Below are positions 1,875 through 41,801 of a DNA stretch of 42,242 bases, piece by piece. The notes under the pieces are model-generated. The model had not been told where the DNA came from, searched no databases, and saw nothing but the letters and a program-made list of their open reading frames with translations. The stretch is from the IMG/VR virus record IMGVR_UViG_2657245570_000016. One strand, given 5' to 3'. The position numbers and the translations under genes are program-made. The first letter of the stretch is position 1. Each line of letters starts with the position of its first letter. The stretch comes from a virus (lineage: Duplodnaviria > Heunggongvirae > Uroviricota > Caudoviricetes).

Positions 1875-2071
1875 TACTGGCTGCGACATTTTTGAATAAA
1901 AGCGTCGATATTTCGGCGCTCATAACGAACTACTTTTGCACTGAAACGAATTGGTGCCAGGATAGCCCGATGACGATGCTTAATATTCCACTCACATAGC
2001 GTTTTCTGTGTAATACCTAACTTTTGGCATACTTCATCCGGGGTGAGTAAATCGTCGGGTTTCTCGCTCAT
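1871..2071 (-). CDS. AlpA-family helix-turn-helix regulator / excisionase
   Basis: 66-aa protein with an HTH-like segment (LLTPDEVCQKLGITQKTLCEW); position directly beside int; 4-nt overlap with the upstream helicase gene. Confidence 0.65.
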   Translation of the reverse strand: MSEKPDDLLTPDEVCQKLGITQKTLCEWNIKHRHRAILAPIRFSAKVVRYERRNIDAFIQKCRSQY

Positions 2072-3462
2072 GCTATACCTCTCTTTTTCATGGCATCGAG
2101 CAGGATGTCCTGCACTGTTCGTTTTGAGTTGCGCCGCTCCATCACCATTTCATCCATAGTGTCGGCAGCAATAATGTGGTGAATAAATACCGGACGATTG
2201 TGTCCGGCCTGTATCTGCCTGGTGGGGCCGATACGTTCAATAATTTGCTGATATTGCTCCAGGTCCCACCAGTGTGAGAAAAATACCAGTATATTTCCGC
2301 CGTCCTGCATGTTCAGGCCGTGGCCCGCGCTGGCTGGGTGTGCAAAGAGAACAGGAATCTTTCCGGAATTCCAGTCGCGCAGTGTCTGTGGATCCTGGTC
2401 GAGGTGACGACCGCGAGGGAATGCTTTAAGCAAGCGTTCAAGATCGTGTTTCCAGTGATAAGCAACCAGCACAGGTGCGCCAGCTGCTTCGGTCAGTATG
2501 CTGTCCAGCGCCTGTAGTTTGGTGTCATGCAGTTCTGACCAACTTCCGGTGTCATCTGTGTATACTGCGCCGCTGGCGATTTGCAGACACTTCAGTGTCT
2601 TTGCCGCGGCGTTCGGTGCTTCGATGCCTTCGCCATTCAGCTCGAGGAACATTTCCTTTTCCATTTCACGATACTGCTGACGGGCCTTCGGTGGCATATC
2701 CACGCGGATTACGTTATGGATGGGGTCTTTGATATCGAACCAGTCGGCCGCATCCAGCGAGAGGGTTACATCGGCTAACGCTCGCTGTATTTCACCCTGT
2801 GAGTGAGCAAAAGGCTCCAGTTTGGTCCAGCTCTGCCCCGGAAACTGTATCGAGTTGAACCAGCGTGAGGTAAACGCGCCGTAAGTGCGCCCGAGACGTT
2901 GCCCCTGGTCCACAAACCACGATTGTCCCCACAAATCTACCAGGCCGTTCGGTGCTGGCGTACCGGTGAGATTTATCCAGCGCCGGACATACTTATGCGC
3001 CACTTTGCCCAGCGCCGCCGCGCGCTTACCACCACCGCGCAGCCGGAAGGATTTTAGCCGGGTGCTTTCATCTGGAATGACAGTACCGAACGGCCATCGT
3101 TCTCCCAATTCTTCAATCAGCCAGACAAGGTTATCGTAGTTGATGGTGAACACGCTTGCGTTGCTGTTCGTCAGCGCCATAGAGCGCGCTTTGGCATTAC
3201 CAATAATTGGCTGCACCTCGATATTGCGCAAATGTCCCCACTTCAGTGCTTCATCCGGCCATGTGCTGGCAGCCACGCGCAGCGGCGCGAGGACCAGTGC
3301 GGGGCATGTTTCTGCCCCTGCCATAAAGAGATCTTCCAGCGCAGTGAGCGTTGCCACGGTTTTACCCATTCCCATCCCCGCCCAGATGTTGCCGCGCAGG
3401 GTTTCGGTTTCGTGGTTGATAATGAGAACTTGGTAGGGGCGAGGTATATATTTTGGGGGCAT
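2068..3462 (-). CDS. SNF2-family ATP-dependent helicase
   Basis: Motifs in the translation: Q-motif (PYQ), Walker A GMGMGKT, DExx-like VIPDESTRLK, motif III LTGTPAPN. Confidence 0.85.
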   Translation of the reverse strand: MPPKYIPRPYQVLIINHETETLRGNIWAGMGMGKTVATLTALEDLFMAGAETCPALVLAPLRVAASTWPDEALKWGHLRNIEVQPIIGNAKARSMALTNSNASVFTINYDNLVWLIEELGERWPFGTVIPDESTRLKSFRLRGGGKRAAALGKVAHKYVRRWINLTGTPAPNGLVDLWGQSWFVDQGQRLGRTYGAFTSRWFNSIQFPGQSWTKLEPFAHSQGEIQRALADVTLSLDAADWFDIKDPIHNVIRVDMPPKARQQYREMEKEMFLELNGEGIEAPNAAAKTLKCLQIASGAVYTDDTGSWSELHDTKLQALDSILTEAAGAPVLVAYHWKHDLERLLKAFPRGRHLDQDPQTLRDWNSGKIPVLFAHPASAGHGLNMQDGGNILVFFSHWWDLEQYQQIIERIGPTRQIQAGHNRPVFIHHIIAADTMDEMVMERRNSKRTVQDILLDAMKKRGIA

Positions 3463-3524
3463 ATAATATGGCTCCTAAACAACAAAAGGCCAATTTAGAC
3501 CTTTTGTTGTTTTAAAAATGTTAT

Positions 3525-4442
3525 TTATAATAGTGCTGTTACTATTGCATCTTTAAAAATATTTTCTTCTTCATTTATTAAAGGTGATGACAGATGAATA
3601 ATTACTTCTTTTCCTGTCAATACTATTTGCTCGACTTGAAATCCTGCGTTGTGTAGTCTTTGGCGTAACTTTTCTAGTGCTGATTTTGATATACTAAATC
3701 CTTCACTCCTTATAGTATAACTGGCAACTCCATTTTTAATAATATCTACAGAGTTGTCAATTTCCTGCTGCGAGTAATTTTTCGGTGAGTCGAAAAATCT
3801 GGATTTTGTCGTTGCTGTTGCCCTAAGAGATATCAATAATGATTTGATATCTTTAATCTCAGATGCCAGATACTCAGTTTCTGATACTTCTTTCTGGTCT
3901 AGTTGTGCAACTTTGAAAGTGCCAAAATGTTTGAGGAATGTTGTGTATTCAGGATCAGTTACTGACTTTAAATATGTTTCTTTTATCTTGCTCGCAAGTC
4001 TTTCTTTGAATAAATTGATTGATTGGTATCTTAAATCCGAAGGGTACTCTAAATGTTCAATTGATGAAATGTCAAAGCTATAAGGAGTGCGCTCGTCCTT
4101 AATAATTACGGTCGGTTTGTCAAATGCGAGACGCATTCCTAATTCAAACATTACATTAGCGTTTCGAGCACTTATATCGCAAACAACTATGGGGTTTTCA
4201 TAAAGATTTTGAACAATTCGTTTTTGTATTACTGCAACATCATCATCTGAACTTACCAAATTTGCCTTGAATCCGGCATCATTTGATGCTTCACAAATAA
4301 TGTCATGAACATTTCTCCAATGTCCAGTGGGATAACCTTCTATGTCCGCAATTGGCATAATAATGCCGCATATATGAGGTGGCATATTTTTGTTGTCTTT
4401 TACATCATCTTGGTTTATTTCTTTCGTTTGTTGCTTAGCCAT
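3525..4442 (-). CDS. Hypothetical protein: N-terminal TIR-like / nucleoside 2-deoxyribosyltransferase-like domain plus C-terminal domain of unknown function (about 170 aa)
   Basis: N-terminal ICGIIMPIA...IVVCDISARNANVMFELGMRLAFDKPTVIIKD...SFDISSIEHLEY resembles the conserved core (R.xNV.FE.G ... pSD..G..Y) of TIR-like/deoxyribosyltransferase-like folds. Visibly AT-rich relative to neighbours; good AGGAG Shine-Dalgarno before the ATG at 4440-4442. Confidence 0.5.
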   Translation of the reverse strand: MAKQQTKEINQDDVKDNKNMPPHICGIIMPIADIEGYPTGHWRNVHDIICEASNDAGFKANLVSSDDDVAVIQKRIVQNLYENPIVVCDISARNANVMFELGMRLAFDKPTVIIKDERTPYSFDISSIEHLEYPSDLRYQSINLFKERLASKIKETYLKSVTDPEYTTFLKHFGTFKVAQLDQKEVSETEYLASEIKDIKSLLISLRATATTKSRFFDSPKNYSQQEIDNSVDIIKNGVASYTIRSEGFSISKSALEKLRQRLHNAGFQVEQIVLTGKEVIIHLSSPLINEEENIFKDAIVTALL

Positions 4443-5171: not shown

Positions 5172-5933
5172 TTACGAGGAAGCGTTAGCTATTTGAGCTT
5201 GTGTAAATTCGAAACCAGAATTTTGTAACCGTTGCACTAGACGAGGAACTGTTTCACGTACATGGTCGTTGAAATTCAGATACAAAATCCCGTTAGCATC
5301 AGAAGGCTGTTCTAGGTGCTGTTTCTGAAGGATTGCTACATTGCTGCGCCCTAAGGACGAAAGAAGCATACCCATCTCGAGTACAACGTTCTGTCTTGCG
5401 CGGGGTTGGATTTCTGCTTCACCGGCGCGCTTTGAGTATCCCATATCATCAGGTGTCAAAAGAACAATCCCGAAACGAGTAGCAGTTTGTCCTTGCCCAA
5501 TTTCACGTTCAAGCTCTTCAATAATGGTGAGTCCAGTCCCTCCCGTATTCTGCAAAATGAAATGGTCTGGTAATCCAAGTTTATGAAGGATTAGCTCAAG
5601 TTGTTCCTTTGCAGTATGGTCATGGCCGTGAACAATGAATATCTTTTTGGGAAGCTCAGATGGCTGTTCTACGGCTAGTGGTGTTGCCGTGGGGGGCGTT
5701 CCTAAATGGGACATTATTGCAGTTTCAACATTGGGACGTTCTTGAGGGTTCCCTTGAAACTGAATGGTCCGGGTGGTGTAAAGGTTAACAATTACGCCAT
5801 TCGTTAAACGATAGCAGTCATAAGTCTCACGCTGTTCGTGGGAAAAATTGGTGAACCCACACTCCCTCAAAAAGTCAGGAAAAGATTCTCTCGGGTATGG
5901 ATAGTTGATCGGCATTTCAGTTAGTTCCTGCAT
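5172..5933 (-). CDS. Hypothetical protein: N-terminal domain of unknown function (about 90 aa) plus C-terminal TIR-like domain (Cap12/PycTIR-type predicted nucleotide-binding fold)
   Basis: C-terminal KKIFIVHGHDH...FGIVLLTPDD...RARQNVVLEMGMLLSSLGRSNVAILQK...PSDANGILYL matches my recollection of the TIR-like consensus (FIvHG ... TPDD ... RaRqNVvfElG ... pSD..G..y). GC content looks lower than the flanking pol gene. AAAGGA Shine-Dalgarno before the ATG. Confidence 0.55.
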   Translation of the reverse strand: MQELTEMPINYPYPRESFPDFLRECGFTNFSHEQRETYDCYRLTNGVIVNLYTTRTIQFQGNPQERPNVETAIMSHLGTPPTATPLAVEQPSELPKKIFIVHGHDHTAKEQLELILHKLGLPDHFILQNTGGTGLTIIEELEREIGQGQTATRFGIVLLTPDDMGYSKRAGEAEIQPRARQNVVLEMGMLLSSLGRSNVAILQKQHLEQPSDANGILYLNFNDHVRETVPRLVQRLQNSGFEFTQAQIANASS

Positions 5934-5997: not shown

Positions 5998-8061
5998 TCA
6001 ATCTTTTTTGTAGTGGTACGCCTCAAAGCCGCCAGCGTTCAGCGGAATATCGGGTGCCCATTCGGGGTTAGTGGAGAGAAGCGCGGAAAGCGCTTTATCG
6101 TTGAAATCTTCTGTGTCTGGTGCTTCGGTGATCACCTCGTCGTGTACCGTTAGCACAATGCTGTAACCGGCACCCTCGATCAGCGGCATGTTTCTGGCTA
6201 GAACGTCGCGGGCGGCCGCCTGGGTGACGTTCTCCACCAGCTTTCCGCCGTAGGTTTTGAGTCGTTGCCATTTACGCGAATAAGAGTTAACACCCATGTA
6301 GGTGATATTCCCTTGTTCGATAACCGGAGACGGGTAGCATACAGCGCGTCCGGATGGTAGCTGTATGCGCAGCCACGCGCCATCACGTCGGATTTTAAGA
6401 TAGCCGCAATACAATGTTTTTTGCGGTGTGGCGATTGCTGTGCGGACAGTGCGCTCCAGCTCGTACCAGAAATCGCAGGTCGCCGGGTGCGCCCTGCGCC
6501 ACAGGCGCTTGAGCGAGTCACATGCGATGAATACACGCTCGGACAGGCCAAAGGTCGACTTACGCTTAACCGATTCGTCGTACCAGCTTTTTGCCTCGCG
6601 GATAACATCGCGGGGAATGTTTGGCAGTGCGGCGTTCGCCAGCTCGTCGAGATCGAGACCGTAAACCAGAGCAAAAGTGATGAAAGCCGATACACCACCT
6701 CCATAACCCAGACCGAGTTCCATGACTTTACCGATCTGACGCATGTGTTTATCAACATCATCTGGTGCAATATCGAAAGCTTTTGCATACGCCAGTTTAT
6801 ATAAGTCCGGACCCGTTCCAGCGTCATACTCTCTGAATGCATTCAGTTTCCATTCTTCTCCCGCCAGCCATGCCAGCATACGGCCTTCAATGTTTGACAA
6901 GTCACTTACCACTAGTTTTTTGCCTGTTGGCGCGATAATGCAGCCACGTAACGCTGAACTGGTTAGTTCCATGATATTGTCAAACAGCAGGTCTGCACAT
7001 CCGGCTTTCAGTGCTTCGATGCCTTCGTCTATTTGTTCCTGTTTTAGTGAAGGGCGGGGAAGGTTCTGGGGCTGGAATAGCCGTCCGGCCCAACGACCGG
7101 TACGTGACGCCCCGCAGAACTGTAGCGTACCGCGTAAGCGCCCGTCGTGGCTTACGCCTTTCATCAGTGCCTTGTATTTACTGGTGCTGGTAGTACTGGC
7201 TTGCAGGCGGATAGCCAGCAGTTCTTTCACGGCAGATGATAAATCGGGGTCGGCCATACGACGTTCCAGGGTACTGCGTTGCATGTCTGGTAGCTCCACA
7301 CCGTAGGATTCAACGATGTGCTTAATCAACGCGTCCCGTTGTGTGGCTGCCTGCACTTCGCCATCAGTCATTTCCTGTGTACGCTTTGCCAGGCGCTTTT
7401 GCTCCTGGTCTACCGCTTCGATCGCAGCGCGCGCGAGTTGCATGTCCATGCAGACGCCCCGGTCGTTGATCTGCTGATCACGATGCCAGAGCGCCAGCTC
7501 TGTCCCCTGATAATTCCACTTCGGCAGACGTTTATAGACTTCACGCATTGCTTCGATATCCAGTCCGGCGTAAGCAACAAAGCGCCGCCATTCTTCCGGA
7601 TGGGTTTTACTGGTGGCCCGACGCAGTTTGCTGTTTTTCGGACGTGGCTTACAGAACAGCTGGATCAGCGCTTTACCTTCTTTGTCCTTCGCTTTGTCTT
7701 GCGGGACGCCTAGTACTTCGCAGAGTTCCCCCAGAGACCCCGGGAGACCGTGCGCCAGCGCCTGCACCATCGTGTCGCGCCAACGTTCGACTGGCGGTGC
7801 CAGTCGCGGCATTGCATAACGCAGAACGGTGCGGTCGAAGTGAGAGTTATGGAAATAAAGCAGGGTTTCAGGGTCTGCGATTGCTTCGTATAAGCCGTGT
7901 GGAATACCACCACCGGCAGTGATATCCCACACGTTTACTGGCCCGTCGTTGATAGCCCATGCGAAAAGCATCACTTCAACGCCTTCGGCATACGCATGGG
8001 TACCGTTCGTAATAGGGATTTCGCAATAGGTTTCCAGGTCGCCCCATAGTATATTGGACAT
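5998..8061 (-). CDS. Family A (Pol I-like) DNA polymerase with N-terminal 3'-5' exonuclease domain
   Basis: 687 aa; N-terminal exonuclease motif (GDLETY) then a long polymerase region; a typical partner of DUF2800/DUF2815/VRR-NUC/SNF2 replication modules. Confidence 0.8.
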
Positions 8062-8107
8062 GTGTTTACCTAGGTTTTTATTCTATTAACTGATTAAAAG
8101 ATTAATT

Positions 8108-8737
8108 ATGCATATGATCCAATACTTGATTGACCATACAGAGCATCTGGAGAAAATAGCTGGATATATTTTTTCATGTTTGATTGTTATGGGAGTCTGG
8201 ATAAGAAAGATCATTTTTAATTATAAGTATAAAGAGCCTAAATATGTCAAGAAGTTAATTTTATATTTAATTAAGTATGAACGTTATCTGGATAAGGAGG
8301 ATAAGAAAGCCATAGAAAAAAGAATAAATGATAAAATTATTCGTGATGCGCTGAAATTGCAATCCTCTTATAACCGAAGAGATGTTATTTACATTTGCAA
8401 TAGATTAGAAAAAAGACAGTATATAAATCAGTTGATTAAGCTTCAGAATTATATAGAGAAAGATAACGGAGTGTTTTTTATTAATGTTGATTTTTCAGGT
8501 TTTTTATTTATTATTAGTCGTCTGTTTTCCTTTCTGTGTTTTGTGCTGTTTACCCTTTTTTCTATTATCTGCATTATTTCCATAGGGCAAAATGAAGGCC
8601 TTTTAAATTATCTTGTGTATATGGTTATGATAATAGTTTTAGAGACTGTTGGTTTTTGGATGTATGATACTTTCCCGTCTAAGAAAAAGATCTGTGAACT
8701 AAATAAAGAATTGAGAAAGATTAAGATTCCTGAGTGA
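8108..8737 (+). CDS. Hypothetical integral membrane protein (AT-rich moron on the opposite strand)
   Basis: Strongly AT-rich coding sequence. Predicted N-terminal transmembrane helix (IAGYIFSCLIVMGVWI), a Lys/Tyr-rich soluble middle, and two C-terminal hydrophobic helices. Convergent with the flanking early genes. Confidence 0.55.
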   Translation: MHMIQYLIDHTEHLEKIAGYIFSCLIVMGVWIRKIIFNYKYKEPKYVKKLILYLIKYERYLDKEDKKAIEKRINDKIIRDALKLQSSYNRRDVIYICNRLEKRQYINQLIKLQNYIEKDNGVFFINVDFSGFLFIISRLFSFLCFVLFTLFSIICIISIGQNEGLLNYLVYMVMIIVLETVGFWMYDTFPSKKKICELNKELRKIKIPE

Positions 8738-32441: not shown

Positions 32442-33028
32442 TGGATATTCTCTCTACACTTTTTCATCAGCAGAGCAGAAAAATAGGAATGATTGTTCCC
32501 AGTGTTGTTATTTCAGAGAAGCATACAGATATGCTTGAAATAACAGAGCATCCGGTAGAGGTCGGGGCCGCTGTCGCTGATCATGCCTATAAAAAACCGT
32601 CAGAAGTGGTGATGGAGGTTGGTTTCGCCGGTGGCGGCGCATTGCTGGATTTTGCCAGTAACCTGACGGCTACCAGCCTGCTCGGCCTGAGTCCTCAGCA
32701 GACGTATCAGGAGCTACTGGGTCTGCAGGAAAGCCGTATCCCCTTCGATGTGGTAACCGGTAAACGGCTGTACAGCAACATGTTGATCCGGGCGCTGGAA
32801 GTGACGACGGACAAGACAACCGAAAACGTCCTGTCCGCCGTCCTCACCCTGAGGGAGGTCATTATCTCCCGGACACAGCAGATTACCGTCGCGGATAAAA
32901 CCAACATGAAGGAAGGGGCCAGCACGTCGGCGGTACAGAACAGCGGCAACAAAACCACAAAGCCTCCAGATACTTCACTGCTGAAAAGCATCACGGGTAA
33001 CGTGGCGTCATTACTGGGGGGCGGCTAA
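32441..33028 (+). CDS. Tail/baseplate protein
   Basis: 195 aa, coupled ORF after the tape measure. Confidence 0.4.
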   Translation: MDILSTLFHQQSRKIGMIVPSVVISEKHTDMLEITEHPVEVGAAVADHAYKKPSEVVMEVGFAGGGALLDFASNLTATSLLGLSPQQTYQELLGLQESRIPFDVVTGKRLYSNMLIRALEVTTDKTTENVLSAVLTLREVIISRTQQITVADKTNMKEGASTSAVQNSGNKTTKPPDTSLLKSITGNVASLLGGG

Positions 33029-33330
33029 TGACAATTCAGGAAATTCCGCTGACAGCGGACAACCAGCAGTTCAGCATCGTCCTGGGTGGTGTCACCTGGC
33101 GGATTAGCATCATATGGCGCGATCTGTACTGGATTATGGACCTGCAGAACGACAGAGGGGAGCCGGTAATCTCCGGTATTCCTCTCGTCACTGGTGCTGA
33201 CCTGCTGGCGCAGTACGCCTGTATGGGGCTTGGTTTTAAGCTGGTGGTGGTCTGTGATGACAACACACAGGATTACCCCACAAAAACTGACCTGGGCGGT
33301 CGCAGCCATTTACTGGTATCAACGGAGTAA
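33028..33330 (+). CDS. Tail/baseplate protein
   Basis: 100 aa, coupled ORF. Confidence 0.4.
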   Translation: MTIQEIPLTADNQQFSIVLGGVTWRISIIWRDLYWIMDLQNDRGEPVISGIPLVTGADLLAQYACMGLGFKLVVVCDDNTQDYPTKTDLGGRSHLLVSTE

Positions 33331-33332
33331 GC

Positions 33333-34397
33333 ATGTCACAGAACTGGATGAGACATTTCGAGCTGCAGCTTGTGGACGGGAACGGTCAGGGAATTGAGCT
33401 AAGTGATTTCAAAGTCACCTTTACGATCGACTGGTTCAACATCAGCAGCGCGTCCCGGGTAGGGACTATCAAAATTTATAACCTCTCGGCAGATACTGTG
33501 AACCGAATTACCGGGCAGGAGTTTTCGAAAGTGCGTCTGATTGCCGGTTACGACGGTATCGCGCCGGAGGTGTCAGCAAGCGACGTAGGGACCGTGCGGG
33601 AAGTTGACGCGGCGGACGTGGGCCAGAGAGATGGCCGCAACTACGGACTGATTTTCAGCGGTGAAATTCGCTACTCGGTCACAGGAAAAGACAGTCCGGT
33701 TGATACCTACGTCCTGATTCAGGCAGCAGATACTGATCTGGCTTTTGCTACCAGTATAACCTCACAGACGCTGGCTGCCGGTTACACGGTCGCTGATGTG
33801 AACCGTGCGCTGATGAAAGACTTCGAAGCCAAAGGCGCGACCGAAGGCCTGACGCCTGAAATGCCTGCTACTGTATTCCCCCGGGGGCGGGTACTCTTTG
33901 GCATGACGCGGCATCTAATGGATAACGTAGCCGGACAATGTGGCGCAACATGGCAATTCGTGGACGGTCAGCGCCAGATGGTGGTGAATAACGAATATGT
34001 TCACGAAGCGATTGTGCTCAACAGCGCTACCGGGCTTATTGGAATGCCGCAGCAGACTATCGGTAACGGCGTAAACGTCCGCGCGCTTATTAATCCGAAC
34101 ATCCGGGTTAACGGGCTCATTCAGCTGGATCAGGCTTCCGTCTATCGTACCGCGTTGTCGAACAACGATATTGCGATGGCTGGTGGTCAGATCACCGACC
34201 AGAACACGGACGGAAATATCACGCTCAGCGGCACCACATCGCAGCCTGCCAGCATCGCAACGGATGGCGTTTATATTGTGCGCGGGATTATGTACACTGG
34301 CGACACAAGGGGCCAGGCGTGGTACATGGATATGATGTGTGAAGCGCGTGGCGCGGCGGATCTTGTTTCCTCATCAGCGAGGGAAAGAGGGCTTTAA
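33333..34397 (+). CDS. Putative baseplate hub / late control D-like protein
   Basis: 354 aa between tape measure-proximal genes and the spike gene. Confidence 0.4.
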   Translation: MSQNWMRHFELQLVDGNGQGIELSDFKVTFTIDWFNISSASRVGTIKIYNLSADTVNRITGQEFSKVRLIAGYDGIAPEVSASDVGTVREVDAADVGQRDGRNYGLIFSGEIRYSVTGKDSPVDTYVLIQAADTDLAFATSITSQTLAAGYTVADVNRALMKDFEAKGATEGLTPEMPATVFPRGRVLFGMTRHLMDNVAGQCGATWQFVDGQRQMVVNNEYVHEAIVLNSATGLIGMPQQTIGNGVNVRALINPNIRVNGLIQLDQASVYRTALSNNDIAMAGGQITDQNTDGNITLSGTTSQPASIATDGVYIVRGIMYTGDTRGQAWYMDMMCEARGAADLVSSSARERGL

Positions 34398-34732
34398 TGA
34401 AACGGTTATGTTTGGCGTTAGTTATGATGGTTACTGCTCCGGCGATGGCTGCAATTCAGTGCGGCAACTACACGATGACCGGTGACGGAATGACTGTTAT
34501 TAACGGTGAAACTGTCACATCACAGAAGATAAAATTTCTGGGAAAAGATGGTGACTATTCAAACATGAAAATGGACATGGGCCTGATGCCTTCCCGTGAT
34601 GGTAACAATTACGGCTTTGAGTTTGTGAAACGTAACGGAAAAGCTTTCCTGAACGTCCAGCTGCTGCAGAACAGCATGGACGCGCCGAAAATCATTGGAT
34701 CTTTCCCGTGTAAAAAAGTGAGCAGCAAGTGA
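34397..34732 (+). CDS. Secreted small protein (signal peptide), moron-like
   Basis: N-terminal signal peptide MKRLCLALVMMVTAPAMA|A; lower GC than flanking tail genes; TAATG overlap with the upstream gene. Confidence 0.5.
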   Translation: MKRLCLALVMMVTAPAMAAIQCGNYTMTGDGMTVINGETVTSQKIKFLGKDGDYSNMKMDMGLMPSRDGNNYGFEFVKRNGKAFLNVQLLQNSMDAPKIIGSFPCKKVSSK

Positions 34733-35241
34733 CAGTTGATGATGATCCTTTGAATTCATTTCAAGACCCTGACTTTCAGGAACTTCTCGGCGGAATTGAT
34801 ATTACTCTTGTTATAAGGTTTTTTAATTATTTTTCGCGTTTCGAATATGCGTTAAAAAGAATTAATTTCAAAAAAACTGATCGTAGAAATTATCTAATCG
34901 GTGCTGACTGGAGCCGCTACGCTACTGATGATACGCGGCCTTTATATCCTACTGGAAATAGAAATGTCGATAGGGCAGTTGAGTATCTATGTCAGCAACC
35001 TGTGAAGCAGCAGAGGCATGATTTTTCGTGGGAGGATAAACCTCCAATCGAACCTCATTCTCTTGCTGAAGCATTAAAGCAGATCCCGTATATAAGAAAT
35101 AATCTCTTTCACGGCGGGAAGTATTTACGTCCCGCCCCCGTTCGTGATGAAAAGTTATTGAAATACTCTATTTATTTGATGCAGTTGTGTTTGATAACTG
35201 ATAATCAGCTTTCTGAATACTTTAATACTATCCACCGATAG
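34729..35241 (+). CDS. Hypothetical AT-rich protein with an Rx4H (HEPN-like) motif, moron-like
   Basis: Strongly AT-rich; GTG start overlapping the previous stop; contains IRNNLFHGGKY; followed by a terminator. Confidence 0.45.
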   Translation: MTVDDDPLNSFQDPDFQELLGGIDITLVIRFFNYFSRFEYALKRINFKKTDRRNYLIGADWSRYATDDTRPLYPTGNRNVDRAVEYLCQQPVKQQRHDFSWEDKPPIEPHSLAEALKQIPYIRNNLFHGGKYLRPAPVRDEKLLKYSIYLMQLCLITDNQLSEYFNTIHR

Positions 35242-35261
35242 TCATTCTTCATGAGATAAAA

Positions 35262-35290
35262 CCTGCCACCCGGCGGGTTTTTTGCTTTTT
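35262..35290 (+). terminator. Rho-independent terminator after the tail-module moron cassette
   Basis: CCTGCC-ACCC-GGCGGG (6-bp stem with one G-U pair) followed by TTTTTTTGCTTTTT. Confidence 0.6.
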
Positions 35291-35301
35291 GGAGCCTACC
35301 A

Positions 35302-36054
35302 ATGGCAGTAACTGACCAGACCCGCAGTGGCGATCTTGCCGAAACATTTAAATCTGAACGGGAAACAACAAAGAACCAGATCCGTGTCGCCTTGCCTGGC
35401 ATTATTCAGTCATTCGATCCTGACGCGGTGACGGCGGTTGTGCAGCCAGCTATCCGGTCAGTTGAAAAGGATAACGACGGTAACCGCATTACCAAAAATT
35501 ACCCATTGCTGGTGGATGTGCCAGTGGTATTCCCGCGCGGCGGAGGCTGTACGTTGACTTTTCCGGTAAAAGCTGGGGATGAGTGTCTTGTCGTTTTTGC
35601 CGATCGTTGTATTGATTTCTGGTGGCAGAGCGGCGGGATACAGGAGACGGTTGATGACAGAATGCATGATTTATCGGATGCGTTTTGTATTGTCGGTCCC
35701 CAGTCGCAGGCTAGGAAGATTAGCGGTATTAATACCAGTGCCACACAGTTGCGTAGTGACGACGGCAGCACCTATTTTGAGCTTAATCCTGATACCAGGA
35801 AAATTAAAATTGTCGCTCCGGGGGGGCTTGATGTGGTTGCCCCCCTGGCTGATTTTTCTGAGAAAGTAACCATTCATGGCCTGTTAACCTGGATGGGGGG
35901 CATGGTGGGGTCTGTGGTTTCTGGTGTGGCTTCAAAAATCACTGGTGCTGTTGAGTTTTTGGGGAGCGTGAAGGCTAACGGCAAGCCAATCGATGATACG
36001 CACACTCATGGTGGTGTTCAGCGCGGTGGAAGCAGTACCGACGGGGTAAACTGA
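35302..36054 (+). CDS. Baseplate spike / assembly protein V-like
   Basis: 250 aa; N-terminal OB-fold-like region; C-terminal THTHGG motif as seen at spike tips of V-type proteins. Confidence 0.5.
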   Translation: MAVTDQTRSGDLAETFKSERETTKNQIRVALPGIIQSFDPDAVTAVVQPAIRSVEKDNDGNRITKNYPLLVDVPVVFPRGGGCTLTFPVKAGDECLVVFADRCIDFWWQSGGIQETVDDRMHDLSDAFCIVGPQSQARKISGINTSATQLRSDDGSTYFELNPDTRKIKIVAPGGLDVVAPLADFSEKVTIHGLLTWMGGMVGSVVSGVASKITGAVEFLGSVKANGKPIDDTHTHGGVQRGGSSTDGVN

Positions 36055-36407
36055 TGCGATACAGACGTGAAGACGCCGATGGCGATTACACCTTTGGCAG
36101 CGGTGATGACACCTGGCTGATTAACTCACCGGAGGCCGTGGCGCAGGCGGTAAAAACGCGATTCGAATTGTGGTATGGGCAATGGTTTCTCGACACCACC
36201 GAGGGGACTCCGTGGATCCAGTCCGTACTCGGTAAGCAGAAGCCGGAAACCTACAACCTGGCGATCCGTAAGCGCATCCTCGAAACGCAGGGCGTTAAAT
36301 CAATCCTCTCTTTCAATACGACGCTGGATACCACGACCCGACGTGTCATGTTTTCCGCTGAAATCGACACTCTTTATGGAATAACGACTGTTACATCGGA
36401 GGCGTAA
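36054..36407 (+). CDS. Baseplate wedge protein (W/gp25-like)
   Basis: 117 aa between the spike and the J-like gene. Confidence 0.45.
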   Translation: MRYRREDADGDYTFGSGDDTWLINSPEAVAQAVKTRFELWYGQWFLDTTEGTPWIQSVLGKQKPETYNLAIRKRILETQGVKSILSFNTTLDTTTRRVMFSAEIDTLYGITTVTSEA

Positions 36408-37606
36408 TGGCTCTGAACCTTGATTCTCTCGGTTTATCTGCAAAGGTAACCGCGGAGGGGATCAGTGCGCCTGATTATCAGACGATACTCAGCACCCTGA
36501 TTAGCTATTTTCAGCAGATTTATGGCAGTGATGCCTACCTCGAACCGGACAGCAAAGACGGCCAGATGGTGGCTCTGATGGCGCTGGCGATTCATGATGC
36601 CAATAATACTGCGATAACTGTCTACAACTGTTTTTCACCGGCAACCGGCTATGGGGCTGCACTGACCTGTAACGTGAAAATAAATGGTATTTCACGTAAA
36701 GGCGCGACGAACTCTACGGTTGATTTGCTTCTTACAGGAACTGCCGGAACAACCATCATTAATGGCAGCGTGAAAGACAGTAATAATGTGATATGGCGTT
36801 TGCCTGCTTCAGTGGTGGTAGGCGTGGATGGTACAGTGATGGTGACCGCAACATGTTCCGTCAGTGGTGCAGTGGCGGCGCTGGCTGGAACTATCACTGA
36901 AATTAATACGCCAACCCGTGGCTGGGTTTCGGTAACCAATCCTGCTGCAGCCACTGTGGGCACTCCGGCAGAAACTGACGCTGAGTTACGTATCCGCCAG
37001 TCGCAAAGTGTTGCGTTGCCATCAATAACCCCATTTGAAGCACTGGATGGTGCTGTTTCTAATGTTACCGGTGTAACCCGCCACAAACTCTATGAAAACG
37101 ATACTGGTTCGGAGGACGGTAACGGGTTACCGCCACACTCTGTTGCTGTAATTGTGGATGGCGGTGATGTAACGGATATTGCTCAGGCTATCAGAGGGAA
37201 TAAAGGCCAGGGGACAGCCACTCACGGTACAACATCCGTTACGGTTCCGGATAAATACGGCAATCCCCATGTAATCAAATTCTCGCGTTCCAGTGATGTG
37301 CCTGTTTATGCCCTGATTAAATTAAAAGTTTTTACGGGTTATACCTCACAGATAGGGCAGCAGATCCAGCAGGCTATTTCCGACTATATCAATAGTCTGA
37401 TGATTGGTGATTCGGTCCTTTTAAGTCGCATTTACTCACCGGCGAATCTTGGCGTGGTGAGTGGCGGGAATGCACGCTATTACGATATTCAGGAACTGAC
37501 GATTGGGAAATCCCCGGGGGCTTTGTCGTCATCAAACATTGATATCAGATACAACGAATCTGCGTCCTGTACCCCGAAAAATATCGTTATAACGGTGGAG
37601 TCATGA
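36407..37606 (+). CDS. Baseplate J-like protein
   Basis: 399 aa in the canonical position. Confidence 0.6.
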   Translation: MALNLDSLGLSAKVTAEGISAPDYQTILSTLISYFQQIYGSDAYLEPDSKDGQMVALMALAIHDANNTAITVYNCFSPATGYGAALTCNVKINGISRKGATNSTVDLLLTGTAGTTIINGSVKDSNNVIWRLPASVVVGVDGTVMVTATCSVSGAVAALAGTITEINTPTRGWVSVTNPAAATVGTPAETDAELRIRQSQSVALPSITPFEALDGAVSNVTGVTRHKLYENDTGSEDGNGLPPHSVAVIVDGGDVTDIAQAIRGNKGQGTATHGTTSVTVPDKYGNPHVIKFSRSSDVPVYALIKLKVFTGYTSQIGQQIQQAISDYINSLMIGDSVLLSRIYSPANLGVVSGGNARYYDIQELTIGKSPGALSSSNIDIRYNESASCTPKNIVITVES

Positions 37607-38283
37607 GCAAATACACCGAACTAATCACGAACTACCACGCCACCAAACCTAAATTTCTTGCGCATGTTGATCTGATGACCCGGCCACTTATTGATGTTGC
37701 GGCTGCCACCAGAGGGCTGATTAGTGCATTTGATATTGACTCTGCGGTTGGTGTGCAACTTGACATCCTTGGATTGTGGATCGGACGTAGCCGTGTTGTC
37801 AGCCAGCCTATCTCAGGTGTCTATTTCAGCTGGGATACCGACGGGCTTGGATATGATCAGGGGGTATGGCAGGGACCATACGATCCTGATTCAGGATACA
37901 TGTATCTCAGCGATGAAACTTATCGTGTCATTCTTAAAGCGAAGATTGCGATTAATAACTGGGACGGACGGAATGATTCGCTTCCGGCAATTCTTGACGC
38001 GGCAACAGCAGGATCCGGGCTGCGAATGCAGATAGTCGATAACCAGGACATGACGATATCGGTCTGGGTCTTTCCTGATACTGATATTTCAGATGTATCG
38101 CGTGAGTTAATTGCGGCAATTAAACAGGGGTATCTCACAGTAAAAGCCGCCGGGGTATGGGCGGGTGGCATTGAAACACCTTCGGTGGAAACCCCATCGG
38201 AAGGCTCAAAATTTTTTGGTTTTGATATGGATAACGAATTCATCAGTGGTTTTGATGTAGGAGCATGGGGAGTATTACTCTGA
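37603..38283 (+). CDS. Baseplate/tail protein (I-like)
   Basis: 226 aa between J-like and tail fibre genes. Confidence 0.45.
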
Positions 38284-38978
38284 TGGCGAAAAATGACTTT
38301 AAAGCGTTTGCAACGGATCGAAATGCCAATGTTATATCGCAGGAGGAATGGGAAGCGTTGCCCGCGCTTTTATCTGGATTTACAGCAGGGAAAGCCTCCA
38401 GTGCGCAAGTCAATAAGGTTATTCGGCAGGCCAGCTTTATTGCTGCAGCTCTGGCCCAGTTTGTAAGTGATAAAACGCAACGGGATGTGCTTGATAATGG
38501 TGATCTGCCCGGTTTTGTTGAATTGCTGGGATCGGGGTTTGCTGTTGAATACCTGAGCCGCAAGAATCCGTTTGGCGATATCAAATCGGACGGCACGGTG
38601 AAAACAGCTCTCGAAAACCTTGGTTTGGGAGAAGCGGCAAAACGGAATGTGGGCACAGGAGATAATCAGATACCGGATATGGGAGCATTCGCTTCTGGTT
38701 CGGGATGGTTCAGGCTACCAGGTGGATATATTGTTCAGTTTGGCACTTTTTCAGGAAACACGACCCGCTTTATCAGTGGACACTTCCCTATACCATTCCC
38801 TAATCAGCCGATGATTTCAGTCAGTGTTATGTCTGATGCCGTTCAGTCAGACCCGTCGAATCCTGCCCCGCAGGTTTTGTCTGTAAATTTTGAACATATC
38901 AGTAATTCAGCGTGGCGTGTGGCAACCAGTGATATCTCACAGCAATACAGATTCAGTTATATTTCGATAGGACGGTAG
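38265..38978 (+). CDS. Tail fibre protein (constant part plus currently expressed variable C-terminus)
   Basis: Contains the left inversion site at 38611-38634 inside the coding sequence; followed by a tail fibre assembly gene. Alternative ATG at 38283. Confidence 0.6.
38611..38634. repeat. Invertase recombination site, left (hix/gix-like)
   Basis: TCGAAAACCTTGGTTTGGGAGAAG; its left half resembles the hix half-site as I recall it; matches the reverse complement of 40429-40452 at 21 of 24 positions. Confidence 0.6.
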
Positions 38979-38980
38979 AA

Positions 38981-39421
38981 ATGCAGAAATATATTTTCAG
39001 TGCCGATAAAAATGCGTTTTTCCCTGTGGAGCTTAAAATCGCTTATCAGGAATCCGGCGAATGGCCCGATGATGGAATCGAAATTGACGACACTGTTGCT
39101 GCCGAATTTATGAAGGAAGCACCAGAAGGAAAATACAGAGGTGTCATCGACGGAATGCCTGCATGGATTGATATTCCACCGCCAACTCATGAGGAACAAA
39201 TTGCCGCAGCCGAACTGAAAAAGCAGCAATTGATTAATCAGGTCAACGAATACATAAACAGTAAGCAATGGCCTGGTAAAGCGGCGATTGGTCGCCTGAA
39301 AGGTGAGGAACTGGTGCAATATAATTTGTGGCTGGATTATCTGGACGCACTGGAACTGGTCGATACTTCCGGTGCGCCAGATATTGAATGGCCTACGCCT
39401 CCGGCAGTTCAGGCCAGATGA
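38981..39421 (+). CDS. Tail fibre assembly protein (Tfa/U-like)
   Basis: 146 aa; conserved C-terminal ELVDTSGAPDIEWPTPP, mirrored by the opposite-strand paralogue (DTSTAPDVIWPELP). Confidence 0.7.
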   Translation: MQKYIFSADKNAFFPVELKIAYQESGEWPDDGIEIDDTVAAEFMKEAPEGKYRGVIDGMPAWIDIPPPTHEEQIAAAELKKQQLINQVNEYINSKQWPGKAAIGRLKGEELVQYNLWLDYLDALELVDTSGAPDIEWPTPPAVQAR

Positions 39422-39989
39422 CATCCGGCGCGGTGCTGGTATCTGTTGCCGTCACCGCGTCAATGTAATCCAGCACAGCGTTAAGCCGGGTTGTTTCTGC
39501 CTGCGTCAGTTTCCGCCCGGCTTGTAATTTCAGCTGAATCAGACTAATGGAAGCCATTGCTGCATCAATCAGTGACTGGCGCTGTGCTTCTGACGCGTCT
39601 ACTGCGGCGCTATGCTGTGCCTCGGTATCCGTCACCCATTTCTCACCATCCCATTTATCGTATGGCATTAACGGTGAAAGCGTGACATAACCATCTTTGA
39701 TGGCACCGATATAATCCACTGTAACAGCTGCGCCATTTTCGATTGAGTAAACAGTCTCATTGCGATGGTCCTCTTCATGGCTCCATCCCTTACCTGTAAA
39801 TACAGCCACTTTTCCCGGAATGTTTTCGCCAGGGTTAATTCCAGTGGAACAGGCGGGCATACTTACGCCAGTATTAATATATTCATCAGACCAGCCCGTA
39901 TACTCAGATGTTTCAGCATCATAATAAAAACAACGCATATCGCCCGGCACTGTAGCCAGTCCATTTTCATCAAAAATTGGGGTCATCAT
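39393..39989 (-). CDS. Alternative tail fibre assembly protein (Tfa') inside the invertible segment
   Basis: 198 aa on the opposite strand with a Tfa-like C-terminus; convergent and overlapping with tfa. Confidence 0.65.
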   Translation of the reverse strand: MMTPIFDENGLATVPGDMRCFYYDAETSEYTGWSDEYINTGVSMPACSTGINPGENIPGKVAVFTGKGWSHEEDHRNETVYSIENGAAVTVDYIGAIKDGYVTLSPLMPYDKWDGEKWVTDTEAQHSAAVDASEAQRQSLIDAAMASISLIQLKLQAGRKLTQAETTRLNAVLDYIDAVTATDTSTAPDVIWPELPEA

Positions 39990-40441
39990 TTAGCCCTCAC
40001 CAGAAAGTTAAATGCAATATTTCGCGGTCTGACGGCAACAAAATTCACACCATCACCCACAGAGTTACTGGTGAAATTAAATCGTGAAAATCCTGGCTGA
40101 TTTCCGGCGATACCATCATGAAAATTAATTGTGTGGCCCGCACCATCGCCTATATTCCCGGCAAACTGAGAAAAGTTTGTAGCTGCCTGCCAGCTTAATA
40201 ATTCGCGACCACCGTCTGCACCTCGCCCGTCATCCCAGATACGAATGAAATCACCGCGGGCTTCAGGTAATACCAGCGAAGGAAACACTTTCGCCAGCAC
40301 AGGGTAATCAGAGGCAGAAAATTTCGCCCCGTTAAACTTCAAAAACACCATACCGGACCAGCTGTCGATGACAGAATTTGGCATTGCAGCGGACGGCCAG
40401 AAGAACGGAACGCCAATAGCTGGGGCACCTTCTCCCAAACC
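39986..40441 (-). CDS. Alternative tail fibre C-terminal segment (Sv'-like; promoterless, expressed only after inversion)
   Basis: Open frame on the minus strand starting at the right inversion site; encodes a Gly-rich fibre-like C-terminus; no plausible own start. The ORF-track Met at 40483 lies outside the invertible segment. Confidence 0.55.
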   Translation of the reverse strand, partial: GLGEGAPAIGVPFFWPSAAMPNSVIDSWSGMVFLKFNGAKFSASDYPVLAKVFPSLVLPEARGDFIRIWDDGRGADGGRELLSWQAATNFSQFAGNIGDGAGHTINFHDGIAGNQPGFSRFNFTSNSVGDGVNFVAVRPRNIAFNFLVRAK

Positions 40442-40452
40442 AACGTTTATGA
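40429..40452. repeat. Invertase recombination site, right (hix/gix-like)
   Basis: CTTCTCCCAAACCAACGTTTATGA is the inverted copy of 38611-38634; lies 57 bp upstream of the invertase start. Confidence 0.6.
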
Positions 40453-40509
40453 AAATGCAGAAATAACGAGCAAATGGCATCATTCCTGCTTTTGTCAGAG
40501 GGATCCACT

Positions 40510-40824
40510 ATGCTTATTGGCTATGTACGTGTGTCAACAAATGACCAGAACACAGATCTACAACGTAATGCGCTGAACTGTGCAGGATGCGAGCTGTTTT
40601 TTGAAGACAAGATAAGCGGTACAAAGTCCGAAAGGCCGGGACTGAAAAAACTGCTCAGGACATTATCGGCAGGTGACACTCTGGTTGTCTGGAAGCTGGA
40701 TCGGCTGGGGCGCAGTGTGCGGCATCTTGTCGTGCTGGTGGAGGAGTTGTGCGAACAAGGTGTTAATTTTAGTAGTTATGTTATTACAGGTGGGGGATTT
40801 CTCCCCCTTATGCAGATTTTCTAG
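40510..40824 (+). pseudogene. Serine DNA invertase (Hin/Gin/Pin/Cin family), truncated after about 96 codons
   Basis: MLIGYVRVSTNDQNTDLQRNAL...DTLVVWKLDRLGRSV closely matches the Pin/Hin N-terminal catalytic domain; after EQGVNF the sequence diverges (SSYVITGGGFLPLMQIF*) into AT-rich DNA. Typical family members are about 185-190 aa. Confidence 0.75.
40787..40802. other. GC hairpin at the junction between the truncated invertase and AT-rich DNA
   Basis: GGGGGA-TTTC-TCCCCC perfect 6-bp stem, about 27 nt downstream of the stop of the minus-strand 281-aa gene. Confidence 0.4.
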
Positions 40825-40828
40825 TTAA

Positions 40829-41674
40829 CTATTGGCGAAGTGGCCATATTTTTCTGTTTTTTAAAAAACTATCTTCAACTATATAACTGCAACAATGTTC
40901 ACTAAGGCCATAAAAACTAATTATTCCATATTTATGAGAAGCTATATCAGACAGTTCTGCTAATACTGTGGCAAGCCAACGAGCGATGCTAAGAGAATAG
41001 AATCTTCCCCACTTTTGAACAATGGTATTTTGTCCAGTACGGATGGAGGCTGATATAAGGTCTTGCATAATGTTGGTACTTTCATTCATATACATGACCG
41101 TTGTATACGGTGAAAGAGTGGCATTGATAAACCTAGCATTTTCTTCAACACGTCTTTGTTCAACTGTATAATAATAATGTTTTTCAAGGATACTCTCGGC
41201 TACTTCTCCCCACCATTTATTAATAGGTTCATTATTGGTTAAATTGGGGCTGCTTAATGAGGAGAAATTTGCGTAACGTCCCCGTCGGGCATCAGCAAAG
41301 GAATCTAAACATTCAAGTATTTTGTAGGTAATTTTATGTGTAGGACGTGAATATCTCAGAGATAGTTGCATTTTTTTAGAAATACTATCAACCTCGTTGG
41401 TTAATTCAATGAGCTTATGTCCAAATTTTCTTACAATATTCTCATCAGGCATTTTCCCTTTGTGTTCAATGGCATAGTGTGCAACAAGTATTAGTTTAGC
41501 AAGTCTCTCAAAACCTACAGAAAGCCCAAAAAATGCTGTGTAATATTCACCTATTTTGTCTGCATAATTGGCTTTACCTATGGCTGTTGCCCCAGAACCA
41601 ATGAGCTGTGTAACTAAAGATGCTTCTCGGCCCAGAGCGTGCCATGCTGGAATATCCCAGGGATTTTTATTCAC
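40829..41674 (-). CDS. Hypothetical protein (281 aa), AT-rich cargo gene
   Basis: Long ORF in visibly AT-rich DNA; no motif I can assign confidently. Confidence 0.5.
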   Translation of the reverse strand: MNKNPWDIPAWHALGREASLVTQLIGSGATAIGKANYADKIGEYYTAFFGLSVGFERLAKLILVAHYAIEHKGKMPDENIVRKFGHKLIELTNEVDSISKKMQLSLRYSRPTHKITYKILECLDSFADARRGRYANFSSLSSPNLTNNEPINKWWGEVAESILEKHYYYTVEQRRVEENARFINATLSPYTTVMYMNESTNIMQDLISASIRTGQNTIVQKWGRFYSLSIARWLATVLAELSDIASHKYGIISFYGLSEHCCSYIVEDSFLKNRKIWPLRQ

Positions 41675-41801
41675 TTTATTATTTTCCTTTGCTCATAAAT
41701 TTAAATTGTTTGAGTATCTCATAAAATATAAGGAGATGGTTAAGGTTGTTGATCGCATATAATAGCTATTGAAAGTCAAGAACTCGGTTTTATGTTCTAC
41801 C

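Follow-up and report, generated by a model that had tools for sequence, protein, structure and literature searches.

Two small genes separate the baseplate hub from the spike in a prophage of Escherichia coli, and their position raises the question of whether they belong to the tail, to a paired toxin or defence unit, or to something else. We examined this locus in a 42,242-nucleotide stretch of caudovirus DNA (IMG/VR record IMGVR_UViG_2657245570_000016; the whole stretch is hereafter referred to as the window), which is almost wholly a temperate myovirus prophage of the SEN34 / vB_EcoM-689R2 type. The first gene encodes a 111-aa exported protein and the second a 170-aa protein with a HEPN-like motif. 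An earlier note, made from the letters alone, had described the two as one AT-rich cargo cassette closed by its own terminator. Comparison with related phages led us to a different layout, in which a fixed exported-protein gene is followed by a recombination-prone slot and then by a conserved intrinsic terminator before the ribosome-binding site of the spike gene. The 170-aa gene is the only cargo of this slot in the window, and its product likely has a HEPN-type fold and active site. The locus comprises the following features.

33333..34397 (+), baseplate hub gene, 354 aa, the left backbone flank (PHROG 196 'baseplate hub', E 2e-88; weak Pfam E217_GP41 match)
34397..34732 (+), gene of the 111-aa protein, phrog_3443, a lineage-fixed accessory gene and not variable cargo
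34729..35241 (+), gene of the 170-aa HEPN-like protein, phrog_19013 (function unassigned), the actual variable cargo
35258..35290 (+), intrinsic terminator hairpin and T tract, a backbone element that bounds the cargo slot on its right
35291-35294 (+), GGAG ribosome-binding site of the spike gene
35302-36054 (+), spike gene, 250 aa, the right backbone flank (Pfam PF18352, E 5e-44, plus the Apex motif; 'membrane-puncturing spike protein' in RefSeq)

Both small open reading frames (ORFs) exist with the boundaries that had been proposed for them. The ATG of the 111-aa gene overlaps the hub stop codon (TAATG), and the 170-aa gene begins with a GTG that overlaps the stop of its predecessor (GTGA), a start that is supported by homologues whose N-termini align from residue 1. 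We found the hub-spike region (33300-36100) to be 100% identical to that of the induced E. coli phages vB_EcoM-689R2, 606R2 and 611R5, and to be related to that of Salmonella phage SEN34 (Brunovirus) and of Klebsiella Wanchaivirus phages.

We then compared the distribution of the two genes. Among 5,426 complete E. coli genomes, the 111-aa gene was detected in 103, only 25 of which also carried the 170-aa gene, while 27 further complete E. coli genomes had an unrelated two-gene cargo at the same place; homology among these genomes breaks at about nt 320 of the 336-nt 111-aa gene. The hub gene is kept in all related loci, and the 111-aa gene lies directly 3' of it in the loci examined with upstream sequence available (16 species-representative genomes, 80 IMG/VR loci and several annotated phages). 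It was also present in 20 of the 23 phage records with a hub at least about 48% identical. The 111-aa gene is an old accessory gene that is fixed in this phage lineage and lies behind the hub in nearly all Enterobacterales relatives. Moreover, 111-aa alleles and cargo types are shuffled independently of one another and of the hub. A single cassette made up of both genes and the terminator was thus not borne out, given the 103 versus 25 genomes and this independent shuffling. A reading of the pair as a toxin with its partner likewise became unlikely, since the first protein is exported and is also found where the second is lacking, and we rejected both a two-gene toxin-antitoxin pair and a sensor-effector pair made of these genes. 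As a separate observation, one related locus (L007) lies in a record titled Chryseobacterium sp. 18061 (CACSKA010000001.1), which holds an Enterobacterales-type prophage with tail proteins 79-93% identical to those of the window and is probably a contamination or a mislabelled assembly.

The rho-independent terminator itself proved real, with a 10-bp stem (35258-35281) and a T tract (-19.3 kcal/mol, z = -3.4; none of 200 shuffles matched this stability). It is found about 12 nt 5' of the spike ribosome-binding site in all relatives checked, including four loci in which the slot is empty (L040, L041, L102 and L103), and the block of terminator and ribosome-binding site is kept in 20/20 aligned loci irrespective of cargo. 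The hairpin carries structure-preserving substitutions in two of the related loci (L011 and L017) and in Hafnia phage yong1. The terminator is therefore not the cassette's own, as had been claimed, since it accompanies any cargo and also the empty slots, in which the order runs from the 111-aa stop codon through about 25 nt, the hairpin, the T tract and GGAG to the spike ATG. Taken together, the independent shuffling, the empty slots and the shared terminator indicate that the fixed unit consists of the 111-aa gene and the terminator, with cargo inserted between them. In one Yersinia artesiana locus (L012, ~5310-5408) we observed two tandem terminator hairpins 5' of the spike gene instead of one.

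This arrangement has a consequence for transcription of the baseplate genes. Only about 20 nt lie between the hairpin and the spike ATG, and in empty-slot loci only about 25 nt lie between the preceding stop codon and the hairpin, leaving no room for a conserved promoter on either side; spike transcripts must therefore pass through a canonical terminator. The same holds for transcripts of any baseplate genes further downstream that are without a promoter of their own. Passage may involve either partial termination, phage antitermination or another role of the hairpin such as RNA stabilisation. No Rfam match was obtained for 33000-36500. A terminator about 12 nt before the ribosome-binding site of an essential baseplate gene thus poses a testable question, namely how late transcription gets past it.

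Position between hub and spike, in the same orientation and with coupled starts, would be compatible with both proteins being structural or assembly components of the baseplate. The comparison with relatives points the other way. In Providencia phage PSTCR3 (hub 38% identical) insert and terminator are both missing and the hub gene overlaps the spike gene itself, so that the same module is built with neither gene, and Hafnia phage yong1 retains only the last 21 codons of the 111-aa gene. It follows that neither window gene is needed to build this baseplate type. In addition, the 111-aa protein carries a Sec signal peptide, and the 170-aa gene is missing from most relatives. We therefore consider a structural role extremely improbable and rejected it for both proteins, in agreement with the earlier note, which had held the pair not to be tail structure.

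To characterise the slot, we clustered the ORFs between the 111-aa gene and the spike gene in 97 loci and found at least 25 cargo architectures. The distance between these two genes varies from 63 to 1,502 bp, and a slot may be empty or may contain one to three AT-rich genes (mean slot GC content 0.42); in 16 of 16 individually measured loci it was AT-rich (GC 0.36-0.46 vs 0.47-0.57 in the flanks). Empty and alternative slots were found in otherwise near-identical phages. The commonest cargo, in 31 of the 97 loci, is a gene pair encoding proteins of ~245-275 aa and 125-150 aa (L001 3429-4584; L004 4483-5642; L031; L032), neither of which belongs to a Pfam family. The small proteins of two variants of this pair share 30% identity and an R-x-N-x-D-Y motif, one of them gave a weak PADLOC HEPN_IX match (E 0.027), and a 142-aa representative had no sequence match in the PDB. 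Other occupants include a membrane-anchored protein with two transmembrane segments and an Mrr_cat nuclease domain (L018 4132-5019; Pfam E 8e-28), which also matches ZorD and type IV restriction endonuclease models, a YafO toxin (E 1e-17) with an upstream 193-aa partner (L017 4392-5383), and a 410-aa protein with a T5orf172/MUG113 domain that occurs in 11 loci (L107 3917-5152). We also detected a secreted tRNA_anti-like protein with an oligonucleotide/oligosaccharide-binding fold, a DUF2335 membrane protein and several small signal-peptide or transmembrane proteins. PADLOC returned domain-level matches only and no named complete defence system among the cargos tested. A search for repeats at att- or insertion-sequence-like borders gave only a 13-nt chance pair, which suggests that cargo is exchanged probably by homologous recombination in the conserved flanks. 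As a set, the occupants of the slot are what is usually seen in an accessory or defence hotspot of a prophage.

The cargo of the window stands out by composition. No other stretch of the late region is as AT-rich as the 170-aa gene (GC 0.384 and GC at third codon positions (GC3) 0.339 vs a late-region GC of 0.51; z = -3.8), with only 0.2% of equal-sized late-region segments being as AT-rich. The 111-aa gene is ordinary (GC 0.452, GC3 0.545; 7.6% of such segments are as low), and the claim that both genes are AT-rich consequently held for the second gene and failed for the first. Close relatives of the 170-aa protein (49-75% identity) occupy the same slot in Enterobacter, Citrobacter, Salmonella, Pantoea and Pseudescherichia prophages. 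A profile search of 1.84 billion cluster representatives recovered 2,392 family members, mostly stand-alone proteins of ~165 aa; these ~2,400 entries are clusters at 50% identity. Pfam, NCBIfam and PADLOC yielded no match for the 170-aa protein, and its family is not recognised by the releases searched. We aligned 147 diverse members (25-36% identity to the window protein) and found E39, R123, H128 and G129 to be invariant and R37, K43, N124 (at least 90%), N125, G130, K131 and R139 to be nearly invariant. The two motifs concerned are as follows.

34831..34857 (+), helix-1 motif F-S-R-F-E-Y-A-L-K, with E39 invariant and R37 and K43 nearly so
35095..35112 (+), R123-N-N-L-F-H128, the candidate HEPN catalytic motif, followed by G129-G-K131

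The second of these is the Rx4H motif that had drawn attention to the protein; it is the sole Rx4-6H present and agrees with the HEPN pattern in having a polar residue (N124) after the arginine. An Rx4H alone is expected by chance in about one in five proteins of this size, by our estimate, and its significance here therefore lies in its invariance across the 147 homologues and not in its mere presence. The AlphaFold2 (AF2) model of this cytoplasmic protein is confident and mainly helical (predicted local distance difference test (pLDDT) 91.4) and places RNNLFH at the C-terminal end of helix 112-127, ahead of a long helix at 137-157. In a search of the PDB with the family profile, the only matches below E = 1 were Csx1-Crn2 chains, at marginal values (E 0.027 and 0.15). 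The alignment superimposes RNNLFHGGK on W-R401-N402-S-V-A-H406-G-G-R and extends into the following helix, and R401, N402 and H406 are reported to make up the catalytic R-X4-6-H motif of Csx1-Crn2 (PMC11317161). Similarly, 11 of the 16 PADLOC models with any sub-threshold match to family members are Cas13 (Cas13a, Cas13-ApeA), Csx1 or CARF-HEPN models, and the commonest sub-threshold Pfam matches include Abi_2, HEPN_Apea and HEPN_Swt1. A match of two family members to PADLOC HEC-05 (E 7e-5) was treated as irrelevant, HEC-05 being BrxU/GmrSD-like. The invariant motif and the weak yet consistent profile similarity make a HEPN-type fold and active site likely in the 170-aa protein.

A possible role is suggested by HepS (STM14_3211) of the Salmonella prophage Gifsy-1. 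This solo HEPN abortive-infection protein is constitutively expressed and persists as an inactive tetramer until siphovirus tail-tip proteins activate it, upon which it cuts tRNA in the anticodon loop (PMC13043305). By analogy, we lean towards the view that the 170-aa protein is a solo HEPN-type RNase acting in abortive infection or inter-phage conflict. The variability of the slot, the conflict-type genes among its other occupants and the defence-type surroundings of distant homologues also speak for this view. In such a scheme, the protein would be inactive by default, and oligomerisation would bring two RNxxxH motifs together into one active site. An infecting or competing phage would act as the trigger for cleavage of RNA (tRNA, rRNA or mRNA), and this cleavage might in turn lead to abortive infection or inter-phage exclusion. 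We infer the RNase activity, the oligomerisation, the trigger, the defence phenotype and the expression timing alike.

Several results weigh against this view. With regard to the fold, Pfam, NCBIfam and PADLOC gave no significant match to a curated HEPN model (for family members, E 0.003 at best among HEPN-type models), a Foldseek search of the PDB with the 170-aa model had no match below E = 2.7, and hhalign did not align the family profile with the one AbiV-type HEPN protein tried. The HEPN idea of the earlier note thus gained an invariant motif and consistent profile similarity and failed to gain a significant curated model or structural match. In some cases (P0167, P0175) the family member forms the C-terminal part of a fusion with DUF6884, a YaaA-like domain with a putative role in DNA binding or repair (PMC11701544), and these fusions could point to a role other than RNA cleavage. 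The literature search retrieved no functional study of any member of the family. With regard to expression, the weakest part of the proposal, sigma-70-like promoter candidates for the 170-aa gene reached only 9 of 12 consensus matches, no more than in shuffles, and no site 5' of the 111-aa gene was common across lineages in 23 sequences. Translation of the 170-aa gene is coupled to that of the 111-aa gene, and the latter is in turn coupled to the hub gene. Given this coupling and the lack of a detected promoter, expression in the lysogen, which classical prophage defence requires, is only putative, and the gene may be made only late with the genes of the phage's own lytic cycle.

Two alternatives draw on these results. 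The first takes the 170-aa protein for a non-catalytic helical protein, such as a nucleotide- or protein-binding adaptor or an anti-defence inhibitor, whose resemblance to HEPN is convergent. Non-catalytic HEPN-like domains do exist, and the sub-threshold model scores and the empty Foldseek result would fit. Yet R123 and H128 are invariant together with N124, N125, G129 and K131 in a family of ~2,400 clusters, a pattern difficult to account for unless there is a catalytic or ligand site, and the sub-threshold matches concentrate on HEPN RNases. We accordingly regard a non-catalytic protein as quite unlikely. The second alternative makes the protein a late factor for the phage's own lytic cycle instead of a defence that protects the lysogen, for example an RNase that shuts off the host, blocks co-infecting phages or satellites, or counters host immunity. 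Late-only expression would favour a lytic-cycle role, e.g., inter-phage competition, over classical lysogen defence. The lack of an own promoter and the chained start and stop overlaps from the hub through the 111-aa gene to the 170-aa gene look like co-transcription with the late tail genes, and the gene is preceded by little or no spacer in each of the five g170-type alleles examined. Nevertheless, the gene is dispensable, judging by the empty and alternative slots of near-identical phages, the other occupants are typical lysogen-benefit or toxin genes, and distant homologues are chromosomal and lie in defence islands and not in phages. Such a late factor therefore appears improbable to us, though less so than a non-catalytic protein.

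Gene context bears on whether the protein acts alone. Among distant homologues, one lies 3' of a pair encoding an XRE repressor and an ImmA/M78 peptidase, a second is surrounded by HEPN_AbiV, TIR, RNase_T and Mrr-DEAD genes, a third adjoins a 1,257-aa nSTAND3 NTPase, and others have unrelated neighbours; a 30%-identical homologue was found in the tail-gene region of an unrelated Klebsiella prophage. No neighbour recurred in the contexts examined, from which the 170-aa protein looks self-sufficient. In particular, no nucleotidyltransferase of the kind that characterises HEPN-MNT pairs was found near any homologue examined, and the flanks in the window are the exported protein and the spike. These observations also bear on a HEPN-like toxin serving as a prophage addiction or stabilisation module, with a small RNA, a protein or the 111-aa protein as its antitoxin. 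Family members have no recurring partner gene beside them, of MNT type or otherwise, the 111-aa protein is an exported one and most genomes encoding it lack the 170-aa gene, and the region has no Rfam match and no repeat or antisense feature. We thus give an addiction module little credence.

We next turned to the fixed gene of the insert. The cleavable signal peptide that had been proposed for the 111-aa protein is well supported and lies at its N-terminus.

34397..34450 (+), Sec-type signal peptide MKRLCLALVMMVTAPAMA, predicted cleavage after A-M-A, without a lipobox, read by eye

As read from the sequence, it has the n-h-c layout MKR / LCLALVMMVTA / PAMA|A with small residues at -3 and -1, and in 30 homologues the N-terminus is variable yet hydrophobic. 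The mature protein is highly conserved in the same homologues, with two invariant cysteines and strongly conserved motifs that include TSQK, MGLMPxRDGNxYGF and NVQLLQ, and it is probably disulfide-bonded. A lipoprotein reading was rejected, as the residues before C22 are I-Q and constitute no lipobox. The predicted structure is all-beta (pLDDT 74). Homologues are named 'Secreted protein' or 'putative exported protein' in the source annotation, and a relative that is 99% identical over residues 1-108 bears the RefSeq name 'STY1065/STY2022 family phage-derived protein'. Pfam, NCBIfam and PADLOC returned no significant match, and nothing relevant was found in the literature on STY1065/STY2022, the RefSeq accessions, the PHROG identifiers or the phage names. 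Most likely, the 111-aa protein is a periplasmic accessory factor. That its gene keeps a fixed position, encodes an export signal and varies in allele between near-identical phages led us to the conjecture, which we regard as doubtful, that it excludes other phages, as the earlier note had suggested, or modifies the envelope.

These parts can be combined into one larger reading, in which the hub-spike insert would be a dedicated cargo-acceptor module composed of a fixed exported protein that may be a general superinfection-exclusion factor, a slot for captured, co-expressed and interchangeable immune effectors and an insulating terminator that late transcription has to pass, and the 170-aa protein would found a new family of solo HEPN sensor-effectors that sense a phage component and cleave RNA. 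As a whole, we judge this combination rather unlikely. If true, it would provide a second solo HEPN example, unrelated to HepS.

The remainder of the prophage contains further genes of interest. The integrase is encoded near the left end.

471-1874, integrase

The early part carries a primase-polymerase and PolA-like replication genes, and the late region encodes a tape measure, a Dit-like protein, plug, hub, spike, sheath initiator, baseplate J and wedge. Also in the early region, a 253-aa protein (5172-5933, -) has a TIR domain of the CAP12/Pycsar-effector type (Pfam PF10137, E 2.9e-31) and is a candidate second defence cargo of the prophage. It is adjoined by an SNF2-like helicase and a 305-aa ORF without Pfam match (neighbours at 2068-3462, - and 3525-4442, -), and GC content falls to 0.33-0.35 at ~3400-4100, near these neighbours. 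The GC minimum of the window (0.28 at 7900-8400) coincides with the start of the PolA-like ORF (5998-8061, -) and a divergent ORF (8108-8737). Towards the right, the strand switches 3' of the tail-fibre gene (38265-38978), where ORFs at 38981-39421 (+), 39393-39989 (-) and 39986-40483 (-) form a layout (38981-40483) that resembles an invertible tail-fibre segment. The right prophage end is AT-rich (40800-41700; GC 0.35-0.37) and contains a 281-aa ORF (40829-41674, -) without Pfam match.

Finally, we compared the locus with known systems, and we class the finding with two of their kinds, namely the accessory hotspots of prophages and the solo HEPN-like effectors. The 170-aa protein shares with the HEPN domains of Csx1/Csm6 and Cas13 an R-N-x-x-x-H-G-G located at a helix C-terminus, ahead of a loop and a last long helix, and differs from them in having neither a CARF or other sensor domain nor a CRISPR context. 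With HepS it has in common that it is a single small prophage protein with a candidate Rx4-6H motif and no recurrent partner gene, that it occupies an accessory-gene position, and that family members occur inside and outside prophages. In contrast, the two proteins share no detectable sequence similarity (HepS is absent from the PDB matches at E up to 10), and HepS is encoded in a lambdoid replication/antirepressor region, whereas the present gene lies in a myovirus baseplate operon. If the 170-aa protein is an active solo HEPN RNase, a widespread unnamed family (~2,400 clusters) would join the single-protein immune effectors.

Morons, e.g., HK97 gp15 and lambda lom and bor, are extra genes of deviant composition between tail genes that have an intrinsic terminator and are present or absent among relatives. 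The 170-aa gene resembles them in its composition (GC 0.384 vs 0.51), its variable presence and its terminator. However, the terminator here belongs to the fixed part and is common to all cargos, no promoter was identified, and the terminator and first gene are fixed while the second position is exchanged among many cargos. A parallel in architecture is offered by the defence hotspots of P2-like prophages and P4-like satellites (PMC9122126), which likewise have a fixed position between conserved phage genes and many alternative AT-rich gene sets, often of nuclease or toxin type. The slot described here, with the 3' end of the 111-aa gene as its left and the terminator as its right border, offers a compact and easily recognised hotspot in a common Enterobacterales prophage lineage, with most of its cargo sets (at least 25 in 97 loci) still without annotation, and may be mined for new defence or exclusion genes. 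It differs from the P2 and P4 hotspots in lying in another phage lineage, at the hub-spike junction, and in that about half of its cargos are exported or membrane proteins.

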